NCBI GenBank assembly: GCA_965207885.1 | Contig: OZ242311.1 | Span: forward strand, 352,001-416,000 | Direction of reading: 5' to 3' | Length of the DNA stretch: 64,000 nt | From: Candidatus Latescibacterota bacterium | GTDB taxonomy: Bacteria; Latescibacterota; UBA2968 | In this document: piece by piece, positions 1 to 12,304 of the stretch | Layout of the letters: every line of letters starts with the position of its first letter | How positions within the stretch are numbered: the stretch's first letter is position 1 | Position numbers and translations under genes: made by a program | The notes under the pieces: generated by a model | Database searches by the model: none | What the model saw: only the letters and a program-made list of their open reading frames with translations | What the model was told of the DNA's origin: nothing

Positions 1-802
1 GAATCACCTGTTCGTAATCGACATAGGGACCTTCAATCAGTCGAGAGAAGATCTGGATGGCGTCTTCGTCGCCCAATGAAAAAAGTACATGGCTTTGCCC
101 GAGTTGTACTTTTTGAAGATCTGACCCTCCCCCCATGAGTTTTACCACCTGATTCAAAGCATGAGGGGGGACAATGGCCTCTCTGTTGTTATCGGGTAAC
201 CCATCCTGAATCCGCGAATATTTGACCAGACGGTGACCATCTGTTGCCACCATGGTCATGCGTCCATTGCCAACCTGCCAGAGCACCCCTGTGAGTACCG
301 GGCGGGTTTCATCGCGAGATACAGCAAAGATCGTCTTAGAAATCATTTCGCTGAGGACATTGCTATCAGCCGAAGAATCCTGAGCATCCTCATCTTCATC
401 GGATAAAAACGCGATCTCGGGACCATCGATCTCCGTAGGCAAGTCGGGAAAATCGTCAGATGGCACCGACATCAAGGCATAAGTTCCTTCGGCACCACTT
501 TGGCGCTGGAGCGTTACACGACCTTCTTCTGCGGTGAGGGATAGGGATTCTTCGGGCAACTCGCGCACAATTTCTGAGAATTTGCGCGCTGGCACCGTTG
601 TTGCCCCGGGGGCTTCGATGGTGGCCGAAAGTTTGCAGGTTATTGATATATCGAGATCTGTGGCACTCAAACACACATCGCTACCATTGTTTGCATCTAT
701 CAGGATATTGGACAATACTGGCAATGCGGTTTTGGAGGGCACGATATCGATCACAGCCTGGATACCTTTGAGGAGTTCATCTTTTTCTATTGATACTTTC
801 AT
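1..802 (-). CDS. dnaN: DNA polymerase III beta sliding clamp (3' end outside window)
   Basis: Manual translation from ATG at 802: MKVSIEKDELLKGIQAVIDIVPSKTALPVLSNILI...SATDLDISI...TTVPARKFSEIVRELP...DDFPDLP; the later SRDETRPVLTGV and VATDGHRL motifs are typical of DnaN. Not in the ORF track because it runs off the window edge. Confidence 0.95.
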   Translation of the reverse strand, partial: MKVSIEKDELLKGIQAVIDIVPSKTALPVLSNILIDANNGSDVCLSATDLDISITCKLSATIEAPGATTVPARKFSEIVRELPEESLSLTAEEGRVTLQRQSGAEGTYALMSVPSDDFPDLPTEIDGPEIAFLSDEDEDAQDSSADSNVLSEMISKTIFAVSRDETRPVLTGVLWQVGNGRMTMVATDGHRLVKYSRIQDGLPDNNREAIVPPHALNQVVKLMGGGSDLQKVQLGQSHVLFSLGDEDAIQIFSRLIEGPYVDYEQVI

Positions 803-1054
803 GAATGCGTCTCTCCCAAGCGCGTGAAGCCCTTTGTAAATGATTTTTTGAGGTGTTGTATAGCGCGTTTTTTTGAGGTCAAAAGTGGATGATTTTTTGT
901 TCAATTACAGACATCATAATTTACTGAATTTTAACGATTTTGTCAACCTTGCTTTTTGTCCGAAAACCCTCTGTGTCCCAAAGAGTTGTCAGGAAAAAAA
1001 AGAACAACTTAAATGGTTAAAAATTCACGTCTTGCCGTATCCTTTGTAATAACC

Positions 1055-1083
1055 TTGACATGTGCATCATTTGTGCATATATT
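1055..1083 (+). promoter_or_regulatory. sigma70 promoter of brnTA with a TGTGCAT direct repeat (possible antitoxin operator)
   Basis: TTGACA(1055-1060)-17 nt-TATATT(1078-1083); TGTGCAT occurs twice across the spacer; ATG at 1090 lies about 7 nt after the -10. Confidence 0.7.
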
Positions 1084-1089
1084 TGTTTT

Positions 1090-1371
1090 ATGAATTATCA
1101 ATGGGATCCAGAAAAAGCAGAATCAAATTTCCATACACATGGTGTTGATTTCGCTGACTCAATAGGCGTATTTGAGGATATCTGGGCATTGACCTTGAGA
1201 GAAGAGATTGTATCGGGTGAGCAACGATTTGCCACTCTTGGGACCGATTTCTTTGGACGAATTTTGGTTGTCGTTTATACATATCGAGACGAAGACATCC
1301 GTTTAATTTCCGCTCGTCCCGCAACGCGTCGGGAAAGGAGAATATATGAGCAAAAAAGAATATCATTTTGA
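1090..1371 (+). CDS. brnT: BrnT-family toxin (DUF497)
   Basis: YQWDPEKAESNFHTHGVDF...EQRFATLG...ILVVVYTYRDEDIRLISARPATRRERRIY; likely start is ATG 1090. Confidence 0.9.
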   Translation: MNYQWDPEKAESNFHTHGVDFADSIGVFEDIWALTLREEIVSGEQRFATLGTDFFGRILVVVYTYRDEDIRLISARPATRRERRIYEQKRISF

Positions 1372-1606
1372 GACCGCCCAACAAGGCCCTGTCGTTCAGC
1401 CACCACCCGGCAAAACGCGCATCACCATTCGCCTTGACACAGACATTCTGAATTGGTTTAAGAAACAGGTTCACGAAGCAGGGGGCGGAAATTATCAGAC
1501 GCTTGTGAATCAGGCCCTCAGGGAACACATCCAGGCTAACAATGGCGCATTGGAACAAACACTGCGCAAAGTCATTCGCGAAGAACTCGGTTCATACTCA
1601 GTATAG
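1346..1606 (+). CDS. brnA: BrnA-family antitoxin
   Basis: KTRITIRLDTDILNWFK...GNYQTLVNQALREHI; overlaps the end of brnT. Confidence 0.9.
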   Translation: MSKKEYHFETAQQGPVVQPPPGKTRITIRLDTDILNWFKKQVHEAGGGNYQTLVNQALREHIQANNGALEQTLRKVIREELGSYSV

Positions 1607-1614
1607 CAAAAAGA

Positions 1615-1649
1615 AAAGACGCCATTGCGACTCAGGTATCGGCGTCTTT
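1615..1649. terminator. Hairpin between convergent genes (probable terminator)
   Basis: AAAGACGCC(1615-1623)/GGCGTCTTT(1641-1649) inverted repeat with A- and T-rich flanks. Confidence 0.55.
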
Positions 1650-1675
1650 GTTCATAAATGACAGTGTCGATTCTC

Positions 1676-2692
1676 TCACATCTCCAGGTACGTTCTCAAC
1701 TCATTGGCCAAATTTTCTGCTTCATCCAGAGAAAGGTATGGCACTTTAATGGTTCGAGCGAAGAAAAAGCTCTTTCCAGTAATTTCAGATACTTTTCGAA
1801 AGGGCATGGCAGGTATCTCTTGACCCCTTTCGGGAACTGGAGTAATAAATTCCACAGCCCGATACTTGGCATTTTCATCATCCAGTGACACTATATTACC
1901 TGTTACTCGGCCAGCAGCAACAAGGCCAGTCCATCTGTGTGAAAAGAACACAATGTCACCCGGATAAATATATTCAATAAACCGCTTTGTATTTCCCCAT
2001 GCAGCTACTCGGTTATTTTCTATCATATACCAAATATAGTCTTCATCATAAGTTCTATTAGTATCGAACAACACCCCTTTGGTATCACTTGGGTTCCTGT
2101 GCTTATCATAAGGTAATGCAAAGAACTCAAAATATTGTTCGCCGTTCAGGTCATAGATTCTATACGGCAGAAAGTCGATTGAAATTCCCTGGTTTTTCCA
2201 ATAATCAACAGCATTTATGAGGCTATCGTCTGCGGCACTGCCGATTATTATTAGTCGTTGTTTGTTATTTATTTCTTTTTCGTCCAGTTTATGCTCAAGC
2301 TCAAAAGCCTCTTTGTGCGCCTTGCGTAAATCGGTATCTTCTTTTGTATATTGTCGGTATTTATTTTGCAAGGTTTTGTAACTCCATTGTCCGGCCTCTT
2401 GTGCATAACGTAGAGCCTGATGTACAGCATCTTCCCCAGCAGTTTCTCTTTTTAGTTCAAATATAATCAGTCTGCCTTTTTCATCTAATGCATAGATATC
2501 CGCTTCAGCTTGATATTGCCGCTCTTGAAATATTGGCATTAAACTGGCATCCTCAAATAGAACATCAAGAATGTTCCTCGCTATCAAATCCTCCAGGTCT
2601 TTTTCACGATTTCCAAAGCTAGAAAAATTCTTGAATGCTACGGGTTCGAGTGTATTGAACTTCCCGTCAGTTGAGCCAAGTTTGTACAGCAT
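1676..2692 (-). CDS. NucS-like PD-(D/E)XK endonuclease with putative C-terminal EVE/PUA-like domain
   Basis: EKDLEDLI...ADIYALDEKGRLIIFELKR...QALRYA catalytic signature; C-terminal AAWG...IYPGDIVFFSHRWTGLVAAGRV resembles EVE/PUA folds; AT-rich. Confidence 0.7.
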   Translation of the reverse strand: MLYKLGSTDGKFNTLEPVAFKNFSSFGNREKDLEDLIARNILDVLFEDASLMPIFQERQYQAEADIYALDEKGRLIIFELKRETAGEDAVHQALRYAQEAGQWSYKTLQNKYRQYTKEDTDLRKAHKEAFELEHKLDEKEINNKQRLIIIGSAADDSLINAVDYWKNQGISIDFLPYRIYDLNGEQYFEFFALPYDKHRNPSDTKGVLFDTNRTYDEDYIWYMIENNRVAAWGNTKRFIEYIYPGDIVFFSHRWTGLVAAGRVTGNIVSLDDENAKYRAVEFITPVPERGQEIPAMPFRKVSEITGKSFFFARTIKVPYLSLDEAENLANELRTYLEM

Positions 2693-2868
2693 AACATCTT
2701 CTCCTTTCGTCTATAATAGTCAAGATTGAGCTCGGTCCTTTCGGAGACCGAAACCATAGCATTTAACTGGCAGGAAGTTGTATAGATGATTCGGGATTAA
2801 CGGGTTATTGACGTGGAGCAGAAGGGTCTATTCCCCCAAATTTTTGAGTGAATTTACCTGTAATTCAG

Positions 2869-3012
2869 GCTTGTTACCTTAGTCCTTTTCGCTGTTGAGG
2901 CATGTAGAAAATGTGTTGTTTCGCCAGCAAGTATTTACTATAACAGCGAAAATTGGTGAGGAGATATTACCAGTATCCCCTCACTGAGGTTTTCATCTGA
3001 AAGGAAACAAGC
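2869..3012 (+). promoter_or_regulatory. Structured 5' leader of the transposase that pairs over the Shine-Dalgarno sequence
   Basis: 2869-2880 pairs with 3001-3012 (11/12, covers AAGGA); nested helices 2886-2896/2942-2952 (11/11) and 2953-2966/2974-2987. Confidence 0.55.
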
Positions 3013-3013
3013 T

Positions 3014-3925
3014 ATGAGTATTATTAAAGTGGTGGAAAAGTTCAAAAGTCAAGAGGATTGTATAGAGTTCCTTGAGTATTTGAGGTTCAACGACAATCCG
3101 TATTGTCCTCTGTGCAGTAGTCACAATGTAAGCAGGAAGAATCCGCAGGACAAAACAGAACGCTGGAGATGTCGAAGCTGTCGAAGTTCATTTAATGTCC
3201 TATCTGGAACAATATTCAGTGGAACGAGGACGCCTTTGAGAATCTGGTTTCTCGCAATCGTCTTGATGACTCACTCAAAGAAAGGAATATCGAGCTATAC
3301 GCTGGCAGAACTGCTTGATATATCACAAGATAACGCTTGGAGAATACAGGACAAGATAAGGCAAGAGATGTATGCTGAAGTCAACGAAACGCTTGTGCAA
3401 GCAATTACTGGAATATCTGAAATGGACGAGTCGTATGTGAGCATTAAAACAGAGTATCCACATAGTTCTTGGACAGACAAAATGGCAATTCTCGGAATTG
3501 TTTCAAGAAACGGCAAATTATCCGCTCGTAGGGTATATAGCACTGACACAGAAACGATGCAATGGTTTGCCTCCCAATACCTCGACCTGAACAACTCGAC
3601 GCTTTATACTGACCAATATCGCGGATACAACAAAATGAAAGAAATTGTAGAACAGGCGTATGTAAAAAGAAGGTACGGGAAATTTATTGACGATATACAT
3701 ACAAATAATATTGAGAGTCTTTGGGCAGTTGTCAAACGTACGTTCAAAGGAACGTATCATCATTGCAGCGAGGAACGTATAAATTGGTATCTCGCTGAAA
3801 CCTCGTTTAGATATAATTGGAAGCATTTGGATAAAGAGTCAGTATTTAGATATTTTCTCAAATTCTGTCTGTTCAAGCATCGTGATATAGCATATCACGT
3901 TATGAATGATAGCTGGTTGCTATGA
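3014..3925 (+). CDS. IS1595-family DDE transposase
   Basis: N-terminal zinc ribbon CPLC...CRSC, HTH (GISSYTLAELLDISQDNAW), catalytic EMDESY / LYTDQY / HTNNIESLW, and YLAETSFRYN. Confidence 0.93.
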   Translation: MSIIKVVEKFKSQEDCIEFLEYLRFNDNPYCPLCSSHNVSRKNPQDKTERWRCRSCRSSFNVLSGTIFSGTRTPLRIWFLAIVLMTHSKKGISSYTLAELLDISQDNAWRIQDKIRQEMYAEVNETLVQAITGISEMDESYVSIKTEYPHSSWTDKMAILGIVSRNGKLSARRVYSTDTETMQWFASQYLDLNNSTLYTDQYRGYNKMKEIVEQAYVKRRYGKFIDDIHTNNIESLWAVVKRTFKGTYHHCSEERINWYLAETSFRYNWKHLDKESVFRYFLKFCLFKHRDIAYHVMNDSWLL

Positions 3926-3967
3926 TCATTAGAAGGAAGCCCGTTTATTGTAGAAGTCCATTTTAGT

Positions 3968-3995
3968 TTGACAGATTCGGATAGGTAGTTATCTT
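3968..3995 (+). promoter_or_regulatory. Internal sigma70 promoter 1 of the IS
   Basis: TTGACA(3968-3973)-16 nt-TATCTT(3990-3995); predicted start about 4001-4003. Confidence 0.55.
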
Positions 3996-4001
3996 TCTAA
4001 A

Positions 4002-4195
4002 CGTCACAATCACGGCGGACCCGCTATGTCGGGTATCTGCTAAATACAACAACTCATTAAGCGATTTGGGGTAGCTCCCTGAATCCGAGTGAATAGGTAG
4101 AACTATCCCGCATTTTAAATCCGCGTGACTGTGACAATACCCGACACTTTTCGGTGTCGAGGCAGAAATCACGAACGGAGGACAGAATGCGGTAT
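4002..4195 (+). ncRNA. Candidate structured ncRNA or leader RNA inside the IS1595 element
   Basis: Helices 4003-4019/4120-4135, 4027-4036/4137-4146 (10/10), 4142-4147/4154-4159 and 4108-4115/4185-4192; begins at the predicted TSS; no plus-strand ORF in the track. Confidence 0.5.
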
Positions 4196-4219
4196 TTTTA
4201 TTCACAATAAGGATTCAGA

Positions 4220-4588
4220 ATGAGCGAGAATCAACAATCGAAAGAAGATTCGGAAACTATCTTCTGCTGGCAAAATCTGAAATTGTCACCTAAGATATTC
4301 TGGATTGCTATGATCGTGGCGATAGGAGGTGTTTGGATCAGATTTGATAACACACTATATGCTTTTACTTTAGGTCCGTTGGTAGCTGTTGGAGGATGGA
4401 TTTTATACCTCTGGTATTTCCTGCCGATGATCCTATCGCACAGGAGAAACCATCCCAAGAAGTACCAACGAGTAGTGACAATTATTAACTTCTTTCTTGG
4501 TTGGACTACAGTAGGATGGATTGTAGCACTATTTCTCGCCTTCGCACCTAAAATAAAGGAAGATAAAAATGAGGAAATGGGAATATGA
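4220..4588 (+). CDS. Superinfection immunity protein (T4 Imm-like membrane protein)
   Basis: YFLPMILSHRRNHPK...IINFFLGWTTVGWIVALFLAF matches the Imm signature (YFLP...N.FLGWT..GW..AL); extra N-terminal TM segments. Confidence 0.8.
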   Translation: MSENQQSKEDSETIFCWQNLKLSPKIFWIAMIVAIGGVWIRFDNTLYAFTLGPLVAVGGWILYLWYFLPMILSHRRNHPKKYQRVVTIINFFLGWTTVGWIVALFLAFAPKIKEDKNEEMGI

Positions 4589-4754
4589 AGTTATAGACTG
4601 TCTTTTAACGGATTTGAAGAAGCAGATGAACTTGAAAAAGCACCTAAAAGAAACCAAGAAAGATAGATTCAAAGTAAAACCGATGGGGTTGGCTACCTAC
4701 GAGGAAGACGGTCAAACAAAATGTGTTCTGGCGTACGGTTGGAAGAGAAGATAG
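4569..4754 (+). CDS. Small protein, possibly DUF4177-like
   Basis: MRKWEYEVI...WKRR resembles DUF4177 termini; overlaps the imm stop region. Confidence 0.45.
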   Translation: MRKWEYEVIDCLLTDLKKQMNLKKHLKETKKDRFKVKPMGLATYEEDGQTKCVLAYGWKRR

Positions 4755-4758
4755 ATAC

Positions 4759-4786
4759 TTGACAAAGTTTCAGAGTGTGATATTTT
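4759..4786 (+). promoter_or_regulatory. Internal sigma70 promoter 2 of the IS
   Basis: TTGACA(4759-4764)-16 nt-TATTTT(4781-4786) with an extended -10 TG. Confidence 0.5.
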
Positions 4787-4866
4787 GGAGAAGGTGGGCA
4801 GGGCAACCCAACCAAGAACCGCTCTGCCCGTAGCCGATCATAACCCTGCCCTATAAAGGAACCAAT

Positions 4867-5019
4867 ATGACCGACCAGAAATCAGTTGAAAGAGACCAGA
4901 GAATTGCAGAATTGAGACGTGAATTGCAAGACTTAACAAACGAGAAGAACCGTGTAGAAACCGCACCTATCTTGGCGAGATTTAGAGAAATGCAGAAGAT
5001 ATTACCTTGGATGAAGTAG
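4867..5019 (+). CDS. 50-aa coiled-coil small protein
   Basis: AAAGGA RBS, then MTDQKSVERDQRIAELRRELQDLTNEKNRVETAPILARFREMQKILPWMK*; below the ORF-track cutoff; followed by a terminator. Confidence 0.6.
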   Translation: MTDQKSVERDQRIAELRRELQDLTNEKNRVETAPILARFREMQKILPWMK

Positions 5020-5042
5020 GTATCGGAAACAAACGCAATTTT

Positions 5043-5078
5043 AATCCGCCTTAAAGAAATTGAGGCGGATTTTTATTT
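5043..5078 (+). terminator. Intrinsic terminator near the IS right end
   Basis: AATCCGCCT/AGGCGGATT stem followed by a T-rich tract. Confidence 0.7.
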
Positions 5079-5251
5079 ACCCTACTGTTTTTACTGAAGA
5101 TGACTAATTGCGCCAACTACCCGTTGTTCCCGATGATTCCTTTCGCTCCTCCCTGCCGTGACTGTGATTCTGAGGTATGCGCCATTAGGATATAGCATTA
5201 AGAGAGCAGTTGTGAAAAAAATGGTCTAACTTGGGTCGGGTGGGGCGCACT

Positions 5252-5875
5252 TCAGGCTATAGACTTTAGCGAACTTTTAATGTCTTTTTTTAAGTCACTG
5301 GCTCGGGCACCGGATTGAATAAAATTTTTAACATGGCTACGCCAAAATTTAGATCCAAATTTGCAATTGTACTTTAGTATTAGATGCTCTGTAAGATCAA
5401 TAACAGACCTAAAGACAGTCATGTTTAGCGTTATGTCAAATCCCTGTTGGTCTGCTTTTATCAGTACAGTCAAAATAGCCTCCAATCGTCTGGTGGCAGC
5501 ATTATTGTCGGACTTGATACCAAGATCATGGAAACGGATTCGTTCCTCCATATTAGTCGCCCATCTTTCATAGTGTTCTGTTAGTGAGCTAACAGCATCT
5601 CCTCGGTTACAGAATTCATCCCAGCGTTGGATAGCGAGACTAAATGTTTTCTCGTAGTTATCAAGCCAGTTATACCTTTTTGTTTCATACAGAGTGTAGG
5701 CGACGAAAATAAGAGCTGGAATGGTTAACAGGCCTCCAACATACGAGCCAAAGCTTCCCCAATCGAATTTATGTGACCCTGGAAATCCTACATGACAGAA
5801 GTAGCAGCCTAACACGGCGCAAACGTAGATGACTACAATCACAAAATAGATGCGCCACTTGGTTCTGTATTTCAT
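5252..5875 (-). CDS. Membrane-anchored hypothetical protein (WGxFGxxxGG type)
   Basis: Two N-terminal TM segments with DWGSFGSYVGGLL, then a soluble helical domain; GGGAG RBS. Confidence 0.6.
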   Translation of the reverse strand: MKYRTKWRIYFVIVVIYVCAVLGCYFCHVGFPGSHKFDWGSFGSYVGGLLTIPALIFVAYTLYETKRYNWLDNYEKTFSLAIQRWDEFCNRGDAVSSLTEHYERWATNMEERIRFHDLGIKSDNNAATRRLEAILTVLIKADQQGFDITLNMTVFRSVIDLTEHLILKYNCKFGSKFWRSHVKNFIQSGARASDLKKDIKSSLKSIA

Positions 5876-6122
5876 ATATGGTTTCTCCCCTCACAACTCG
5901 GACGCGGTTTCCAGCCAGCCCAAATATGAGAGATTTTTGAAGTAACACCTCTACGGGGATGCCTCTGTTATCCAAAATAGCGTGTTGTGGTCTGTTTGTC
6001 CAGTCCTGTAAAGAGATCCATGACCCTCTCAAGAAGAAGGTCCCTTATCCCACACAAAAACGCTCTTATTCCGAGGAATAAAAACGAAGGTAGGCGTAAG
6101 GCAAGCGAGGGTTTCGGGCAAC

Positions 6123-9100
6123 TTAAACTCCTTTAAATTCCCTTCGTTCCGTCAGCCACAAGCCCTTTGCGATGACCGTTTCACCGGTGAATTTCGTCCA
6201 GTGTCTGGCATAGGTGTTTACCTGGTCGGCTGTTTGTTCACACAGTGCCTGTACATCTTCGTCGGTTTTCACTGCATTGGTTTTGTAATCGACGATTTTC
6301 CATCCTCTGGGCAGGCGATAGACCAGGTCGATGACGCCGCGAATAATTTCGCTGGCGTTGTTCTTCGCTTGCGATACCGCAAAGGGGACTTCGGTATAGA
6401 CGGTTTCCGAGGCCTGTATTTCCGTCCATATCTCCGAGTTGCGAAATTGCTGCAATGCATCCAGTGCGTTCGGTAAAAACTCGGCGTCTGCACCTGCCTC
6501 CTGTAGCAAATGTATGACATAAGGTGTGGGATCATCGGGCAATCGCATGTTGATGGCGTCGTCGAATATCCGGTGGATTACGGTGCCATACGCAGCGCCT
6601 TTGCCTGCTGCTGATCGCTCTTCGTCCGTATATGTGATGTCCGCCCGGTCATCTGTTACCTGTATTACTTCAAAGGATTGTTTTTGCACGGTTTTCCAGA
6701 ATTGATCTCTTTGTACTCGTTCCATTTCTACAGACGGTGTTTTGGTTGATGGGGTTTCTGGGGTGGGTTGCGCTGAATGGTCGCCGTGCGCCAGTTCGGG
6801 CACGTTTTTTAGATGGGGATAGAGCGGCGACCACGGTCCATGGTCGGGTTTTTCCTCGTAGGTGGATACTACGAGCAAGTTTTCTGCGCGCGTTGCTGCT
6901 ACGTAGAGCAATCGCAGTTCTTCGCCTTGCAAAAATTGCGTTTCTTCAGCTTGGGCATCTTCCCAACTCACAGGTTCGGCGACAACCTCGCGTTGATACG
7001 GTCCGCGGGGTTTTGTAATGGGCAATGCCAAAAAGGGCTCTTCGCGGGTGCGAGATACGTGAAATTCGGGACCATAGCGCGTGTAACTCGTGTCATAGGG
7101 GTCGGCGAGGAAGACGATTTTGCCCTGTAATCCCTTGGCCTGATGCAGGTTCATCAATCGCACGACGTTTTCCTGTGCGGAGGGGATGGTCATTTGTTCA
7201 ATTTTGTAGTCTCTGTCGTCAATGAGGGCGCGCAGTTCGGTCACCACCTGCCCCCAATGCATTCCCTGTGCGCTCCATTCGCGGATGAGAGATAATATGC
7301 GGATGAGATTGCCAGCGTGTGTTTCTCCCATGGGCAGGGTGCGCACAAAAGGCAGGAGGCCGAGTCTTTCTACACAGCGCGCTATGGCAGTATCTGGCGA
7401 TAGGGAGTGTAACCATTCCAACGCTTTTTTGAGATGGTCATAAGCCTGCTCGAATGTTCGGCGCAATTCTCGATCCATTCCTTTGGGTAAATCGCGTGTC
7501 CAATTAAAATCACCACCTGCTTTTTTGAACGCATAGAGGGCATCATCTCCCAGGCCGACGAGATCTCCCCGCAAATAGGCGAGTAGTGGTAGCGGATTGT
7601 CGGGCATATAAACGGTTTCCAAAAAATCTGTGAGCGTATGCAATACGTCTGCTTCACCCAGGCGATTGCCTCCCGTGATTTCAAAGGGAATGCTGCGTTC
7701 CTCCAGTGCCTGGGCGTAATGGGACAAATAGCCAGAGGTGCGCGTTAAGATGAGAAAGTCGCCCGGCGATGCGTTGGCGGCTTCTCCATTAATTTCCGTT
7801 TTGCCTTCTATGGCTGTTGCGATGAAGTTTGCAATCCGCGCGGCGTCTTCCTCTGCGATCTGGCTTCGGCTGTTGCGATAGACTTTGTCGATTGAGATTC
7901 GGCGGACCGCCATATTTTCACCATTGGGTCTGTATTTGAATAGCGGAGCAAATTCGGCTTGATAGGGTTTTTCATGCGCGGTGAACAGGGGTTCAAATGC
8001 CGCGTTGATCCAATCGCAGAGGTGACCCAGTGAGCGAAAGTTCGTGTTCAGGTTGACGATATCGCCATTGGTATTGTCAATGCGGTTGCGGACGAGGTCA
8101 AAGGTTTCGACATCCGCGCGGCGAAAGCGATAGATCGATTGTTTGCCGTCGCCTACTAAAAATAAGCTGCCCGGGCGGGGTGTGAGTTTGCGCCAATCGG
8201 TTTCTTGCAGGTTTTCGCCGGTTAAATACAGCAATATTTCGGCCTGGATGGGATCGGTATCCTGAAATTCATCTACGAATAGGCAGTGATAGCGATCCTG
8301 AAAGTGGCGGCGCACTTCGGGGTGGTCGCGCAGTAATCGCGCGGCGAGTTCGAGCAGGTCTTGAAATGTGAGGCGGCCGGATTCGCGGCGGGTTCTGGCG
8401 TATTCTGCAACTGCGTCATCGACAAAAGGAGCAGCGAACCGGTAGATGTATTGCCGCCATCTGGTGAGGGTGGGGTCGAGTATTTCGGTTTGAAATTCGG
8501 GTAATAAGGTGTCTCGCAAGTGTTTTGCAAAATCCTGGTTGGGCGTCCAGCTTTTGAGGGTGACACCGAGGTTTCCGCTGAGTATTTTCAGGAGTTCGAT
8601 GCGATCCGCGTCGGACTGAATCCCCCGGTTCGACAGGAATAATCGCGCGCGGGACAATGCTGTCTGGAGGGCATCGCGTCTGCCGGAAAGTGGATCGGGG
8701 ATATGGGCTTCCGTGCGTTGCAGAAATGCTTCAAGTTGTGAAACTGCGGTCGATAAATCGGGTTTTTGTACTGGTTCGCTTACGAGCGGTACATCGCTGA
8801 ACTGGTAGCGTCTTTGAAAAAATCCATACAGGTCTTCCGGGCGCAGACCCAGTTCTTCAAATTTGACGAGTCGCGGGTCTTCAGATAGAAAACGCTGCTG
8901 GACAAATTGATCCCACGCTTCGCGGCGCATGACGGCTTCTTCGCGTTCTTCGACTTCTGAAAAGTCGGGTGGCAGGCTCGCTTCAACGGGTCGTTCTCGC
9001 AATAACTGGCCGCAGAATGAGTGTATGGTGCCAATAAAGCATTGATCTACTTTTTCGAGTGCGTTTTGAATGCGGTCCAGGTCCTCACCGTCTGCGTTTT

Positions 9101-9332
9101 TGGCACGCGATTTTAATTCACTGAAAAATCGCCCGCGCATTTCACCTGCTGCTTTGCGCGTAAAGGTGATGGCGGATAGTTGATCTACGGCTACGACCCC
9201 TTTTTCCACCGCGTTCACCATCCGCTGCACCAGCGCATAGGTTTTTCCCGCACCAGCTCCTGCGAGCACCATCATATTGCGATCCAGTGCTTCGGCTATT
9301 TTATCGCGTGCTTGTTGATCTCGAAGGTTCAT
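6123..9332 (-). CDS. addA: AddA-like ATP-dependent helicase/nuclease (UvrD family plus RecB-type nuclease)
   Basis: AGAGAGKT, TFTRKAAGE, DEFQD, GDGKQSIYRFR, HQAKGL, ELRLLYVAATRA; C-terminal RGVIDLV...IVDYKT. Confidence 0.88.
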   Translation of the reverse strand: MNLRDQQARDKIAEALDRNMMVLAGAGAGKTYALVQRMVNAVEKGVVAVDQLSAITFTRKAAGEMRGRFFSELKSRAKNADGEDLDRIQNALEKVDQCFIGTIHSFCGQLLRERPVEASLPPDFSEVEEREEAVMRREAWDQFVQQRFLSEDPRLVKFEELGLRPEDLYGFFQRRYQFSDVPLVSEPVQKPDLSTAVSQLEAFLQRTEAHIPDPLSGRRDALQTALSRARLFLSNRGIQSDADRIELLKILSGNLGVTLKSWTPNQDFAKHLRDTLLPEFQTEILDPTLTRWRQYIYRFAAPFVDDAVAEYARTRRESGRLTFQDLLELAARLLRDHPEVRRHFQDRYHCLFVDEFQDTDPIQAEILLYLTGENLQETDWRKLTPRPGSLFLVGDGKQSIYRFRRADVETFDLVRNRIDNTNGDIVNLNTNFRSLGHLCDWINAAFEPLFTAHEKPYQAEFAPLFKYRPNGENMAVRRISIDKVYRNSRSQIAEEDAARIANFIATAIEGKTEINGEAANASPGDFLILTRTSGYLSHYAQALEERSIPFEITGGNRLGEADVLHTLTDFLETVYMPDNPLPLLAYLRGDLVGLGDDALYAFKKAGGDFNWTRDLPKGMDRELRRTFEQAYDHLKKALEWLHSLSPDTAIARCVERLGLLPFVRTLPMGETHAGNLIRILSLIREWSAQGMHWGQVVTELRALIDDRDYKIEQMTIPSAQENVVRLMNLHQAKGLQGKIVFLADPYDTSYTRYGPEFHVSRTREEPFLALPITKPRGPYQREVVAEPVSWEDAQAEETQFLQGEELRLLYVAATRAENLLVVSTYEEKPDHGPWSPLYPHLKNVPELAHGDHSAQPTPETPSTKTPSVEMERVQRDQFWKTVQKQSFEVIQVTDDRADITYTDEERSAAGKGAAYGTVIHRIFDDAINMRLPDDPTPYVIHLLQEAGADAEFLPNALDALQQFRNSEIWTEIQASETVYTEVPFAVSQAKNNASEIIRGVIDLVYRLPRGWKIVDYKTNAVKTDEDVQALCEQTADQVNTYARHWTKFTGETVIAKGLWLTERREFKGV

Positions 9333-12304
9333 ATTCCCATCCAGCGATTGAGGCTGTCCAGCAAGAGTGCGAAGTCGGGGTCGTCGTCCATTGTTTCACG
9401 CGCGGTGGCGAGGGCGTTGGCGTCCAGGCGTTCTTTGCTGCAGACGCGGTTGTAGATGCAGTAGTCGCATTCCTGGGATTTTTGTATGTGAAAAAAGCCA
9501 CCGTTCTCTACCAGTTCGAGCAAGGGGCGCAACACATTGGCGAGTGTTTCGGGTGCTGGCGGCGTTTCTGAAAGCCTGCGGCCGTGTTCTCTGTCGCCGG
9601 GAAAGACGTAACCGGATAATTGTACGCGGCCAGGTTCGCGTTGTTGTCTCAAGATCGAATTCAGAGCATAAGCGTACAGTGCCCATTGCAGATGCGTGCC
9701 GCGTTTGAGCAGGTCCCGTTCGTCGTATTGCGCCATGGATCCGGTTTTGTAATCCCAAATTGCAAAGTTGTCTTCGACTCGATCTACGCGGTCAATACGC
9801 CCGCGGATGCGAATCGCGACATCTTCTGCGAGTTCGAGTGTCACAGGGGGTTCGCAATTCAGCCCGCCCGATTCGCCAAATCCGAAGCTCACTTCAAATG
9901 CGAGGGGATCGGCGTCTTTTTGATCGGACTCGACGGATAGAAATACCTGGGCGGCTTGCAATAGACGTTTGACGTCGGCGCGATACGCCGCTTCGTGTTC
10001 AACGGGATGGGTTTCTTTTTTGGCTTCTATTTCTCGTTCTAAGATTTCACGAATAAGCGTTCCGTGTCGTTCGCGGTCGGGGCGTTCTCCTCGCGCTTTC
10101 AGGGTTTGCATGAATTTGTGGAATAAGCTGTGTAATAACGCGCCAAAAGACAGGGGATCGAGCCATCGCGTGGGGTCGATTTCGATTTTTTCTATGGGTT
10201 GTATTTCGAGTACGTAGTTCAAAAAATACCGGTACGGACATCGGGCGAGCATTTCCAGTTTTGAGGGTGAAAAGATGCGGTGCTGTTCGGTAATCGCCAG
10301 TTCGGGTGTGGGCTTGCCGAGCCATCCATCATAGGTCGTCAATCCGTCCCATTCGCGATTGCGGCGCGCCTTTTGTCCTGCGACCAGATGGGGGAAGGTC
10401 TGATGCACAACGGATTCGTAGTCGGCTGAGGCGTGGTGCGCTATCAGTGCCTCTGCGTCGTCCAGCGCCTGTGTAGATGTTTGGGGCAAAGTGGGTGCAA
10501 CAGGTATAGGGTTGATGTTCATCTGTTCGGCGGCTTGCTGAAAGAGGGCGGCGGGATAGCGTTCCCGGCTGTCGGATAGGCTTCGATGGCAGGACAATAA
10601 TGTCACTTTGTTAGATGCCATGCCCAATACGCGGATGAGATGCCACACTTGCTCGGCGGGTCGCGTGCGGCGCAGTTCCAGTTCACCGGATACGCCCGAG
10701 CGCTCGCCATCTAATAGTATTGGGTCTTCTGTTGCGCCACCGGGGAAGGTGGCTTCGTCCAGGCCTGTGATGTAAATATGTGCGCGATTGGTGTATCCCG
10801 CGCGCGAAAGCGGGGCTATTGCCAGATGTCCGGATTTGGCTGCTTCGGCTTTAAAAGAGAGGTTGGCGATCAATTCAGATAGACGGTTTGCCAGTCGGCG
10901 TACAGGTGCTTTGCGGCGCACGGATTGGGCCACGTGGTGCAGACGATCCCGGATCGCGGTGAGGACCTCATCTTCGGCGTTTGCAAAGTGCGCGAGAAAT
11001 TGCAAGCCAGCATTGACCAGCGCACCAAGCGATACACGGGGTCCGCTGGGGATGAGATCGAATAAGCGTTTGAGTTCTTCTTCAACGGCTTCGATTTCCT
11101 CAAGGGTTAATCCGCGATGGTCGGTTTCCGAGTTTTCACTGTCTCTATGGCGCAGGTCGGCTTTTATCTGGTTCAGGGCAGTAAAATAACGCCGAGGACC
11201 TTCGCCTTCGCCAATATGCGCGTGTTGGAGGACGGTTGCAATTACAGGTGCGCCTTCGGTGGCGATCAGGCCCGCGCGGCACATCATTACGAGTTCGTCT
11301 GCGGGGTATCCAGCGCCTATCCACCGGTAGAAGTTCACCAGTGCGCGACCGGTTCGGGTTGTCGAAACAGGTATGCCTTCGGCAAATGTGGCGGGCAGCC
11401 CATATCGCTGAACCGCATCGCACAACAGGCTCACATAGGGCATTTCTGAGGTGTATGCGATTTCGACGGTGTCCAGGGGTATGGTTCCCGATCTTATGTC
11501 GCGCAATACGGTGCTGATTTCTGTTTCGATGCCGAGGGTTTCGCGCAGTTGGATTTGAGATTTGTCTCTGGGGAACAATCTCGATTTAGATATGTTTCCG
11601 CCTACTCCGATTTTGCCTGTGTTAGCGGGATAGGGTGCTTTGGGAAAGCGTTTTGCCGCACTGTGTGGCGGAGGCGATACACCCATATTATTTCGCCCGA
11701 TGCGGCAGATATAACACTGTGTTTTTTCACTGAGATAGTCGAATGCCAGTTTGGGTAATGGGGTTTCGTCCAGGATGGCATAGTGTGTGTTTTGTGAAGG
11801 TGTTAGATGTTTCAATGCACGTCGATACAATACGGCGTTGTCGTAGAGGTTATCTCTTTCAAATGTCGCGCAATACGTCTGGTAAAGTCGCTGTAATACC
11901 CGATGCCGCGTGCCTTTCTCAGAAAGCGAGTCGGGTTCCAGTTCCAAACCCGCTGCACGCAGGACGCGCAATGTGCGCAGGAAAGGTCGCGTGAGCGCGG
12001 TGGCCTGTTGTGCGAAGTAATCATCATTGACTTCGCGCACGGCCCGGGGGATCATTTCGTCCAGCCAGAATAAGTCCGCGTCTTGCACCATGCGCGCATG
12101 TCCTTCCGCGATGAGATGGGCACCCGCATCTTTTTCCGCGAGGCTGCGCGGGGTTTCGATTTGCAAGTTCAGCCACGAATATCCCGTTTCCGCAAGTGCG
12201 AGTGTCAGGTCGTGCCCTGTGGTCATGGTGGGGACGATCAGCACTTTTGCGTCGATTGGATGCGCGTCACAGAATGCTTTTAGTTGTGCGAGGTGGTATT
12301 GCAT
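9329..12304 (-). CDS. addB: AddB-like PD-(D/E)XK nuclease subunit with Fe-S cysteines
   Basis: SPSKLEMLARCPYRYF, RGRIDRVD...WDYKTG, QWALYA, CDYC...C; 4-bp overlap with addA. Confidence 0.85.
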   Translation of the reverse strand: MQYHLAQLKAFCDAHPIDAKVLIVPTMTTGHDLTLALAETGYSWLNLQIETPRSLAEKDAGAHLIAEGHARMVQDADLFWLDEMIPRAVREVNDDYFAQQATALTRPFLRTLRVLRAAGLELEPDSLSEKGTRHRVLQRLYQTYCATFERDNLYDNAVLYRRALKHLTPSQNTHYAILDETPLPKLAFDYLSEKTQCYICRIGRNNMGVSPPPHSAAKRFPKAPYPANTGKIGVGGNISKSRLFPRDKSQIQLRETLGIETEISTVLRDIRSGTIPLDTVEIAYTSEMPYVSLLCDAVQRYGLPATFAEGIPVSTTRTGRALVNFYRWIGAGYPADELVMMCRAGLIATEGAPVIATVLQHAHIGEGEGPRRYFTALNQIKADLRHRDSENSETDHRGLTLEEIEAVEEELKRLFDLIPSGPRVSLGALVNAGLQFLAHFANAEDEVLTAIRDRLHHVAQSVRRKAPVRRLANRLSELIANLSFKAEAAKSGHLAIAPLSRAGYTNRAHIYITGLDEATFPGGATEDPILLDGERSGVSGELELRRTRPAEQVWHLIRVLGMASNKVTLLSCHRSLSDSRERYPAALFQQAAEQMNINPIPVAPTLPQTSTQALDDAEALIAHHASADYESVVHQTFPHLVAGQKARRNREWDGLTTYDGWLGKPTPELAITEQHRIFSPSKLEMLARCPYRYFLNYVLEIQPIEKIEIDPTRWLDPLSFGALLHSLFHKFMQTLKARGERPDRERHGTLIREILEREIEAKKETHPVEHEAAYRADVKRLLQAAQVFLSVESDQKDADPLAFEVSFGFGESGGLNCEPPVTLELAEDVAIRIRGRIDRVDRVEDNFAIWDYKTGSMAQYDERDLLKRGTHLQWALYAYALNSILRQQREPGRVQLSGYVFPGDREHGRRLSETPPAPETLANVLRPLLELVENGGFFHIQKSQECDYCIYNRVCSKERLDANALATARETMDDDPDFALLLDSLNRWMGI

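Follow-up and report, generated by a model that had tools for sequence, protein, structure and literature searches.

A covarying, apparently undescribed family of leader RNAs in Latescibacterota, with a member among the cargo of an IS1595-family element

The window analysed here, a stretch of 64,000 nucleotides from a Candidatus Latescibacterota genome (NCBI GenBank assembly GCA_965207885.1, contig OZ242311.1, positions 352,001 to 416,000 of the forward strand), carries an insertion sequence of the IS1595 family with several passenger genes (Table 1). The borders of the element follow from an empty site in the related genome G002 (locus L172), which joins window position 2792 to 5132 with one copy of GATGATTC, so that the inserted DNA is 2793-5131. 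The transposase has the zinc ribbon (Zn_ribbon_IS1595, PF12760, E = 4.2e-6) and the DDE domain (DDE_Tnp_IS1595, PF12762, E = 1.3e-23) expected of the family, scoring 132.9 bits against NCBIfam NF033547 (cut-off 75), and terminal inverted repeats and an 8-bp target duplication, the figure given for the IS1595 family by ISfinder, complete the set of features by which such elements are assigned. IS1595-family elements with passenger genes form the ISfinder subgroups marked '+'; the window element resembles these in its transposase domains, 8-bp duplication, short inverted repeats and extra genes between the ends, and differs in that its cargo is accompanied by a conserved structured leader RNA. 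The original prediction had located such an RNA inside the insertion sequence, between the transposase and imm, a placement borne out by IS ends mapped at 2793 and 5131.

The surroundings are themselves variable: dnaN (window 1-1038) directly adjoins a helicase gene (6118-9400, AddA/UvrD-like) in most relatives of the genus, and here the two are separated by about 5 kb of accessory DNA (1039-6117), a mosaic island of which G020 and G002 carry the parts 1-2792 and 5132-5963, without the IS. Within the island, two small overlapping ORFs at 1060-1371 and 1346-1606 (region 1040-1610) form a candidate toxin-antitoxin-like pair that recurs at 93-94% identity in relatives and at two further sites of the window's own genome, G000:5876064 and G000:19580.

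Table 1. Features of the IS1595-family element and its leader RNA, in window coordinates.
Feature	Position	Strand	Remarks
Left target-site duplication	2785-2792		8 bp, GATGATTC; empty site in relative G002
IS1595-family element	2793-5131	+	2339 bp; from comparison with empty site; passenger genes inside
Terminal inverted repeats	IRL 2793-2810, IRR 5114-5131		IRL GGGATTAACGGGTTATTG; 14 of 18 positions match when inverted
Transposase, IS1595-family	3014-3925	+	303 aa; Pfam, NCBIfam
Sigma-70-like promoter	3968-3995	+	TTGACA 3968-3973, 16-nt spacer, TATCTT 3990-3995; 10/12 matches
Structured leader RNA	4002-4199	+	covariance-model core 4002-4160; S5 and U-run in tail to about 4199
Helix P1 (helix A of the original prediction)	4003-4019 with 4120-4135	+	one bulged G
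Pseudoknot S1:S3	4027-4036 with 4137-4146	+	10 perfect pairs; crosses P1
Long arm	4037-4100	+	P3 4037-4040/4097-4100, P4 4052-4055/4087-4090, P5 4063-4071/4077-4085
S2	4108-4116	+	CCGCAUUUU; partner S5, alternatively S1
S3:S4 hairpin	4142-4147 with 4154-4159	+	4142-4146 common to pseudoknot strand S3
S2:S5 helix	4108-4116 with 4184-4192	+	9 pairs, one G-U
Expression platform	4177-4210	+	SD-like GGAGG 4177-4181; S5 4184-4192; U-rich run 4193-4199; 7-codon ORF 4187-4210
imm, passenger	4220-4588	+	superinfection-immunity domain, 122 aa; Pfam Imm_superinfect E = 1.6e-12
Small passenger ORF	4569-4754	+	61 aa; no Pfam family
Small passenger ORF	4867-5019	+	50 aa; from ORF list
Terminator-like hairpin, then T-run	5043-5071	+	end of passenger module; sole match of terminator scan
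Right target-site duplication	5132-5139		GATGATTC; empty-site comparison

Each pairing that had been proposed for the leader, namely helix A, a 10-bp pairing crossing it, a hairpin at 4142-4159 and a duplex of 4108-4115 with 4185-4192, was found where it had been placed, as was a promoter site suited to transcription starting at helix A (here P1). The arm that P1 encloses has conserved internal loops containing GAAUA and ends in the tip GGGUAGCUCCC. P1, S1:S3 and S2:S5 cross one another, and two strands have a choice of partner: S1 can pair with S2 or S3, and S3 with S1 or S4. Towards the 3' end, S5 of the window copy holds an ATG (4187-4189) behind GGAGG and is followed by UAUUUUU, so that 4184-4199 consists of one side of a long-range stem (S2:S5, nine pairs) and then the U-run, an arrangement which gives no match in a simple terminator scan and which is kept, with 7-8 U, in two orthologous groups. 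That ATG opens an ORF of merely seven codons; imm starts at 4220 with its own AAGGA.

Taken as a single sequence, the region 4000-4200 folds with -63.3 kcal/mol (z = -3.0; none of 200 shuffles equally stable), and its minus strand also folds stably (z = -3.9), so that folding energy has no power to assign the strand. Promoter-like sites in the AT-rich stretch 2700-5300 number eight, against 6.1 +/- 2.3 in shuffles, which puts the promoter by itself at chance level. With the promoter at chance level and both strands folding, the single-sequence evidence is no more than suggestive, and the case depends on homologues: it is the covariance-model score of the window copy and the covariation among its relatives that lift the feature above chance.

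BLASTN with the region returned two further copies from the window's own genome, and 28 of 61 related genomes also gave matches. An alignment of 26 copies served to build a covariance model (R1; 170 positions, 45 pairs). Against this model the window copy reaches 128 bits (E = 7e-26), on the plus strand only. Within the class, 72 of 132 genomes contain matches; as many as 13 copies occur in one genome, and the window's own has nine. Across a phylum-wide sample, 62 of 151 genomes were positive; outside the class the count was one of 36, the exception being G134, a 3.1-Mb genome of another class-level lineage with nine copies, five of them at most 4 kb away from an IS1595 transposase gene or gene fragment. 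Given those five, the G134 copies would fit a horizontal spread by way of the IS. In named public genomes, a pattern scan placed the family in Candidatus Latescibacterota metagenome-assembled genomes and a few bins labelled Gemmatimonadota; four further pattern matches outside Latescibacterota (L084, L090, L100, L111) have no covariance-model match and were taken as chance, and a transposase-based search for related loci in public contigs led to two distant Bacteroidaceae loci of no use.

The RNA had been put forward as undescribed, and the comparison with Rfam 15 agrees: at E <= 10, window 2500-5500 gave four weak matches, none of them within 3968-4219, and ten other member loci (59,321 bases) gave none at E <= 1. 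ARAGORN reported neither tRNA nor tmRNA in window 1-10000. In the available text of the literature on Latescibacteria, sponge symbionts and IS1595, no description of the leader was found, and supplementary lists of motif surveys could hold a related one. Window 4002 to about 4199 belongs to a large family of structured leader RNAs that is apparently undescribed. In being found by covariation, in lying between genes in an uncultivated lineage and in having no assigned function, the leader is like the orphan structured RNA candidates that comparative genomics has yielded (Weinberg et al. 2017, PMC5737381); unlike that set, to judge by the words of the main text alone, it comes from Latescibacteria, as neither this name nor sponge, Poribacteria or PAUC34f occurs there, and the supplements may list a related motif.

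Support for the helices comes from 95 model matches, comprising 82 distinct sequences, in an alignment fitted to R1, a procedure that favours the nested helices in the pair counts. Over the nested helices and the crossing pairing of these 82 homologues, 95.2% of pair cells hold standard pairs against 75.8% in shuffles, and in 36 of 42 pairs both positions have changed; none of 500 shuffles reaches the observed values on any of five measures, a control which overstates significance because the sequences share kinship. When partners are slid by 1-3 columns, pairing falls to 32-43%. Both-side changes occur in all 14 modelled pairs of P1 and all 16 pairs of the arm helices P3, P4 and P5. The pseudoknot S1:S3 covaries although it is absent from model R1, with columns 66-209 holding AU 54, CG 12, GU 6, GC 3, UG 3 and UA 2 and only two of 82 sequences unpaired; the competing S1:S2 pairing proposed by RNAalifold leaves 14 unpaired at this variable pseudoknot position. 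The S3:S4 hairpin covaries as well, pair 216-268 being GC in 54 sequences and AU in 17, and pair 218-266 occurring as four pair types.

For the long-range S2:S5 helix, the S2 of each RNA was scored against its own 110-nt tail, with S2 segments permuted among sequences as the control, and the mean best-duplex score was 16.83 with the own tail versus 15.25 +/- 0.23 (maximum 16.10) in 200 permutations. Compensatory cases include L156 (GACGCAUUU/AGAUGCGUC), L080 with 12 pairs, L073 (CGCAGU/ACUGCG) and L021 (UCGCAU/AUGCGA). Crossing and alternative pairings, on which the original prediction turned, are accordingly conserved and covarying among homologues, and the covariation whose absence was to count against that prediction is present.

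The same data bear on the suspicion that the region is the remnant of a protein gene, or that its complementarity arose by chance. An 80-aa antisense ORF does run through 3963-4205, and among 52 representatives 29 have an antisense frame with no stop across the core, above chance expectation; the ORF belongs to no Pfam family, however, conserved blocks are spaced at distances that include all three values modulo 3, indels of 1 nt fall within the most conserved blocks, and the compensatory changes counted above speak against chance complementarity. On the strength of the covariation and the modulo-3 spacing, both ideas were judged refuted, and we regard them as vanishingly improbable.

Evidence of expression comes from contigs of four sponge metatranscriptome runs, all from a single study and with DNA carry-over uncontrolled. 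The contigs cover leader and cargo: in run X1, one contig of 1106 nt (3996-5100) begins right after the -10 box and continues a short way past the terminator hairpin, and the contigs that lie towards the transposase stop at 3960 and 3972. Gaps, which carry no evidence against transcription, comprise stretches of the transposase gene and 3973-3995. The contigs hint at transcription of leader and cargo, with transcript ends, strand and the question of a single transcript lying beyond their reach. The metatranscriptome strain differs from the window at four positions in the leader, two unpaired (4061, 4152) and two in helices, where C4129>T turns the A4009.C mismatch in P1 into A-T and G4081>A turns the T4067.G wobble in P5 into T-A.

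These contigs also touch on the idea of a self-cleaving ribozyme or other catalytic RNA spread by mobile elements, which would suit the several crossing helices, the near-invariant junction nucleotides, the many copies and the link with mobile DNA. The RNA contigs are unbroken across the element, weak evidence against cleavage since contigs merge molecules, and no ribozyme family of Rfam 15 matches; we hold a catalytic RNA to be very improbable.

For counts of what lies before and behind the RNA, the 82 distinct copies were reduced to 52 clusters by grouping at 85% identity. In 29 of the 52, a promoter-like site with 8/12 or more matches has its -10 box end 5-7 nt ahead of P1. Behind the core, 25 clusters have an ORF of 45 aa or more, preceded by an SD, whose start is no more than 60 nt away, a number that rises to 32 if 120 nt are allowed; 11 have a T-run inside 110 nt, and 15 have neither a nearby SD-ORF nor a T-run. 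In the relatives, S5 either covers the SD/AUG region of the next gene or directly precedes the T-run. Cis-regulatory switches are marked by just such a conserved domain, one strand of which pairs to the ribosome site or forms part of a stem ahead of a U-run, and two of the features by which riboswitches are recognised were found here: a conserved, covarying structured domain in the 5' untranslated region and a competing expression platform, in terminator and SD-sequestering forms.

A third, a shared pathway related to a ligand, was not found among the genes that follow. Of 70 downstream ORFs, 54 were scanned with Pfam, the 16 dropped being mostly near-duplicate orthologues (two large ortholog clusters and the L126 group), together with locus L012. 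The scan yielded four WD40 proteins, three subtilases (with TIG domains), two dynamin-like proteins, two DUF1232 proteins and two UDG-like proteins with scores just below the Pfam cut-off, besides single cases of LRR, ankyrin, cadherin-like/fn3, SNase (a secreted nuclease), OMP barrel, PEGA, Rce1-like and, in the window, Imm_superinfect; metallopeptidase-like proteins also occur downstream, many downstream proteins start with a signal peptide as judged by eye, and 26 of the 54 belong to no Pfam family. No common pathway emerges from these 54, which is unusual for a metabolite riboswitch.

We favour, with moderate confidence, a reading of the leader as a cis-acting conformational switch, riboswitch-like in kind, which would control whether the downstream cargo, in this case imm, is transcribed or translated. 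The RNA has a sigma-70-type promoter of its own and forms the long closing helix P1 around a single extended arm (P3-P5), and its junction strands reach out, S1 to S3 as the pseudoknot and S2 to S5 over the start codon behind GGAGG and before the U-run. An alternative state, with S1:S2 and the S3:S4 hairpin formed, would leave S5 free, and because the alternative pairings free S5 the RNA should be able to toggle between the two. One state, presumably 'off', would end transcription or hide the ribosome site; the other, presumably 'on', would let transcription or translation enter imm and the two small ORFs, up to the terminator, with a ligand or a protein likely to set the state. The whole leader-imm cassette is cargo of the IS1595-family element. 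A switch controlling imm had been one of two options offered at the outset, and it has become the best-supported mechanism, the use of the alternative pairings as a switch being probable. The great diversity of downstream genes, the 15 clusters with neither SD-ORF nor T-run nearby, and the fact that the window copy directly precedes its 7-codon ORF rather than imm all weigh against it.

Several of the same observations would be accounted for if the leader were a small RNA of about 190 nt that stands by itself, has a promoter and a terminator of its own and acts in trans; its SD/AUG-like 3' end would then be incidental or a seed. A T-run closes the RNA in the two largest orthologous groups, where the next gene starts 80-230 nt later or was not found, and such ends would fit a free-standing small RNA too; a T-run likewise follows S5 in the window, as in the 11 clusters counted above, the promoter abuts P1, and genomes hold several copies. 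Opposed to this are the 25 clusters in which an SD-ORF follows within 60 nt of the core and no T-run intervenes, copies that would therefore be unable to end as discrete RNAs, the X1 contig, which continues from the leader through imm, and the covariation of S5 with S2, which indicates an intramolecular role. A small RNA acting in trans is, on balance, unlikely.

The switch reading can be set beside the c-di-GMP-I/GEMM type, an example of a riboswitch with both terminator and SD-sequestering platforms that occurs in many copies before varied genes. Like it, the leader has a conserved, covarying 5' core with a pseudoknot and a strand that pairs with the ribosome-binding region or forms the stem before the U-run, and several copies per genome, some on mobile DNA, stand before varied genes that often encode secreted or surface proteins. 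Unlike it, the leader has neither an Rfam 15 match nor an inferable ligand, its core of about 160 nt exceeds most aptamers, its promoter abuts P1, and it is strongly tied to one IS family. A search of the window's own genome with RF01051 gave no match and is void as to c-di-GMP, as the control gave none in 14 reference genomes either; the one clear GGDEF match in that genome has no bearing either way on c-di-GMP as the ligand.

Should the switch reading hold, the family would constitute a new class of riboswitch-like leaders in an uncultivated phylum of sponge symbionts, placed before kinds of gene thought to interact with the host (WD40, ankyrin, LRR, cadherin-like, secreted proteases and nucleases) as well as before IS1595 cargo. 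Its trigger, once found, would disclose a signal sensed by the symbionts and their mobile elements, and the leader itself is a potential regulatory part of about 200 nt. The tight tie to a single family of DDE transposons is unusual, and offers a testable case of a regulatory RNA that spreads with transposon cargo.

This tie was assessed in a flanking scan of 209 ORFs of at least 140 aa within 2.6 kb of the RNAs (216, less seven duplicates from two-RNA loci). An IS1595 transposase lies within that distance in 20 of the 52 clusters, a second copy in the window's own genome making a 21st, or about 40% of distinct members; 31 clusters have none. Seen from the transposase, an RNA stands within 4 kb of 11 of the 20 IS1595 transposase genes in five genomes, where 13 of 46 RNA copies are within 4 kb of a transposase gene or fragment against an estimated 1% or so for random placement, and in the window's own genome the RNA is downstream of two of three such genes. 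The layout varies: a transposase on the strand of the RNA precedes it in 6-7 loci and follows it in one, and in about 10 loci the transposase stands behind the cargo in convergent orientation. Often the RNA comes straight after the transposase stop, 77 nt behind it in the window and a few hundred nt behind it in loci of G020, G070 and G100. Other copies sit beside IS701/IS4, IS110, IS1380, IS982, IS3 or ISKra4 transposases, or at plain chromosomal loci before ordinary genes. We read the leader and its cargo as a cassette commonly carried by IS1595 elements of this lineage. The original description of a transposon-encoded non-coding RNA therefore stands in part: the window copy does lie within an IS, but it is no one-off, belonging as it does to a family with hundreds of copies in Latescibacterota, most clusters of which have no IS1595 transposase within 2.6 kb.

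An association so far above chance, together with the frequent position right behind the transposase stop, could mean that the RNA serves the transposon itself, binding or regulating the DDE transposase or aiding transposition, and does not regulate cargo. Such an RNA would sit poorly with the variable place and orientation relative to the transposase, with the 31 clusters away from any IS1595 transposase and four identical copies on an IS1-like element, and with a 3' end tied to the SD/AUG of the following gene, and we consider it distinctly unlikely. IS-encoded structured RNAs that work with a transposase or nuclease are known in the bridge RNA of IS110 and the omega RNA of IS200/IS605. The leader is like these in being a structured non-coding RNA in an IS beside the transposase gene, conserved over diverged copies of the IS family; it is unlike them in that the partner would be a DDE transposase of IS1595 and not of the IS110 or TnpB/IscB type, that its place relative to IS ends and transposase is variable, that it also occurs without an IS, and that its 3' end is coupled to the start of the next gene. 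The marks of a transposon guide RNA, namely a partner enzyme like those of IS110 or TnpB/IscB and a constant position next to an IS end, were accordingly not found in the family.

The co-occurrence with 11 of 20 transposase genes in five genomes and in 20-21 of 52 clusters keeps in view a broader proposal, in which the RNA, beyond regulating cargo, would be a functional partner of IS1595-family DDE transposons, either needed by the element or sensing the state of the cell to gate transposition or cargo. This we hold to be quite improbable; if true, IS1595 would be the first family of DDE insertion sequences to have a conserved structured RNA dedicated to it. To our knowledge there is no earlier report of IS1595 cargo with a conserved structured leader RNA, nor was one found in the available text of the literature searched. 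Published papers do mention IS1595 together with passenger genes.

Several loci illustrate the range of these arrangements. The second IS1595-type element of the window's own genome (L005, G000:C1:2241154-2245014) has an IS3-family insert (OrfA/OrfB) between its transposase and leader copy, and an Imm_superinfect-like ORF, judged by eye, upstream of the transposase. The same genome holds four identical copies of a 2766-bp IS1-like element (L069:3526-6291 = G000:C1:304526-307291), each with a leader RNA, which contains a 71-aa basic ORF, a terminator, the leader copy, a 210-aa signal-peptide ORF and an IS1-family transposase. The terminal-repeat motif of the window element was sought at 19 other loci near IS1595 transposases, with nothing convincing, and three equal-scoring copies in G058, considered as an intact repeated IS, were rejected as fragments. 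Same-strand pairs of diverged leader copies occur in G020, 0.3 kb apart at L162 (G020:C1:1318039-1318682) and 2 kb apart at L161 (G020:C1:660397-662649). At L128:578-1099, a 174-aa ORF that adjoins two IS1595 transposase ORFs and a leader copy weakly resembles IscB/Cas9d in the HNH region (NCBIfam E = 3.7e-10, far under the cut-off). Two unrelated leader-cargo-IS1595 modules (L080:2555-7506 and L152:3001-5909) have type II Zorya anti-phage genes (ZorA2, ZorB2 and ZorE; NCBIfam) as immediate neighbours, which suggests insertion into defence islands.
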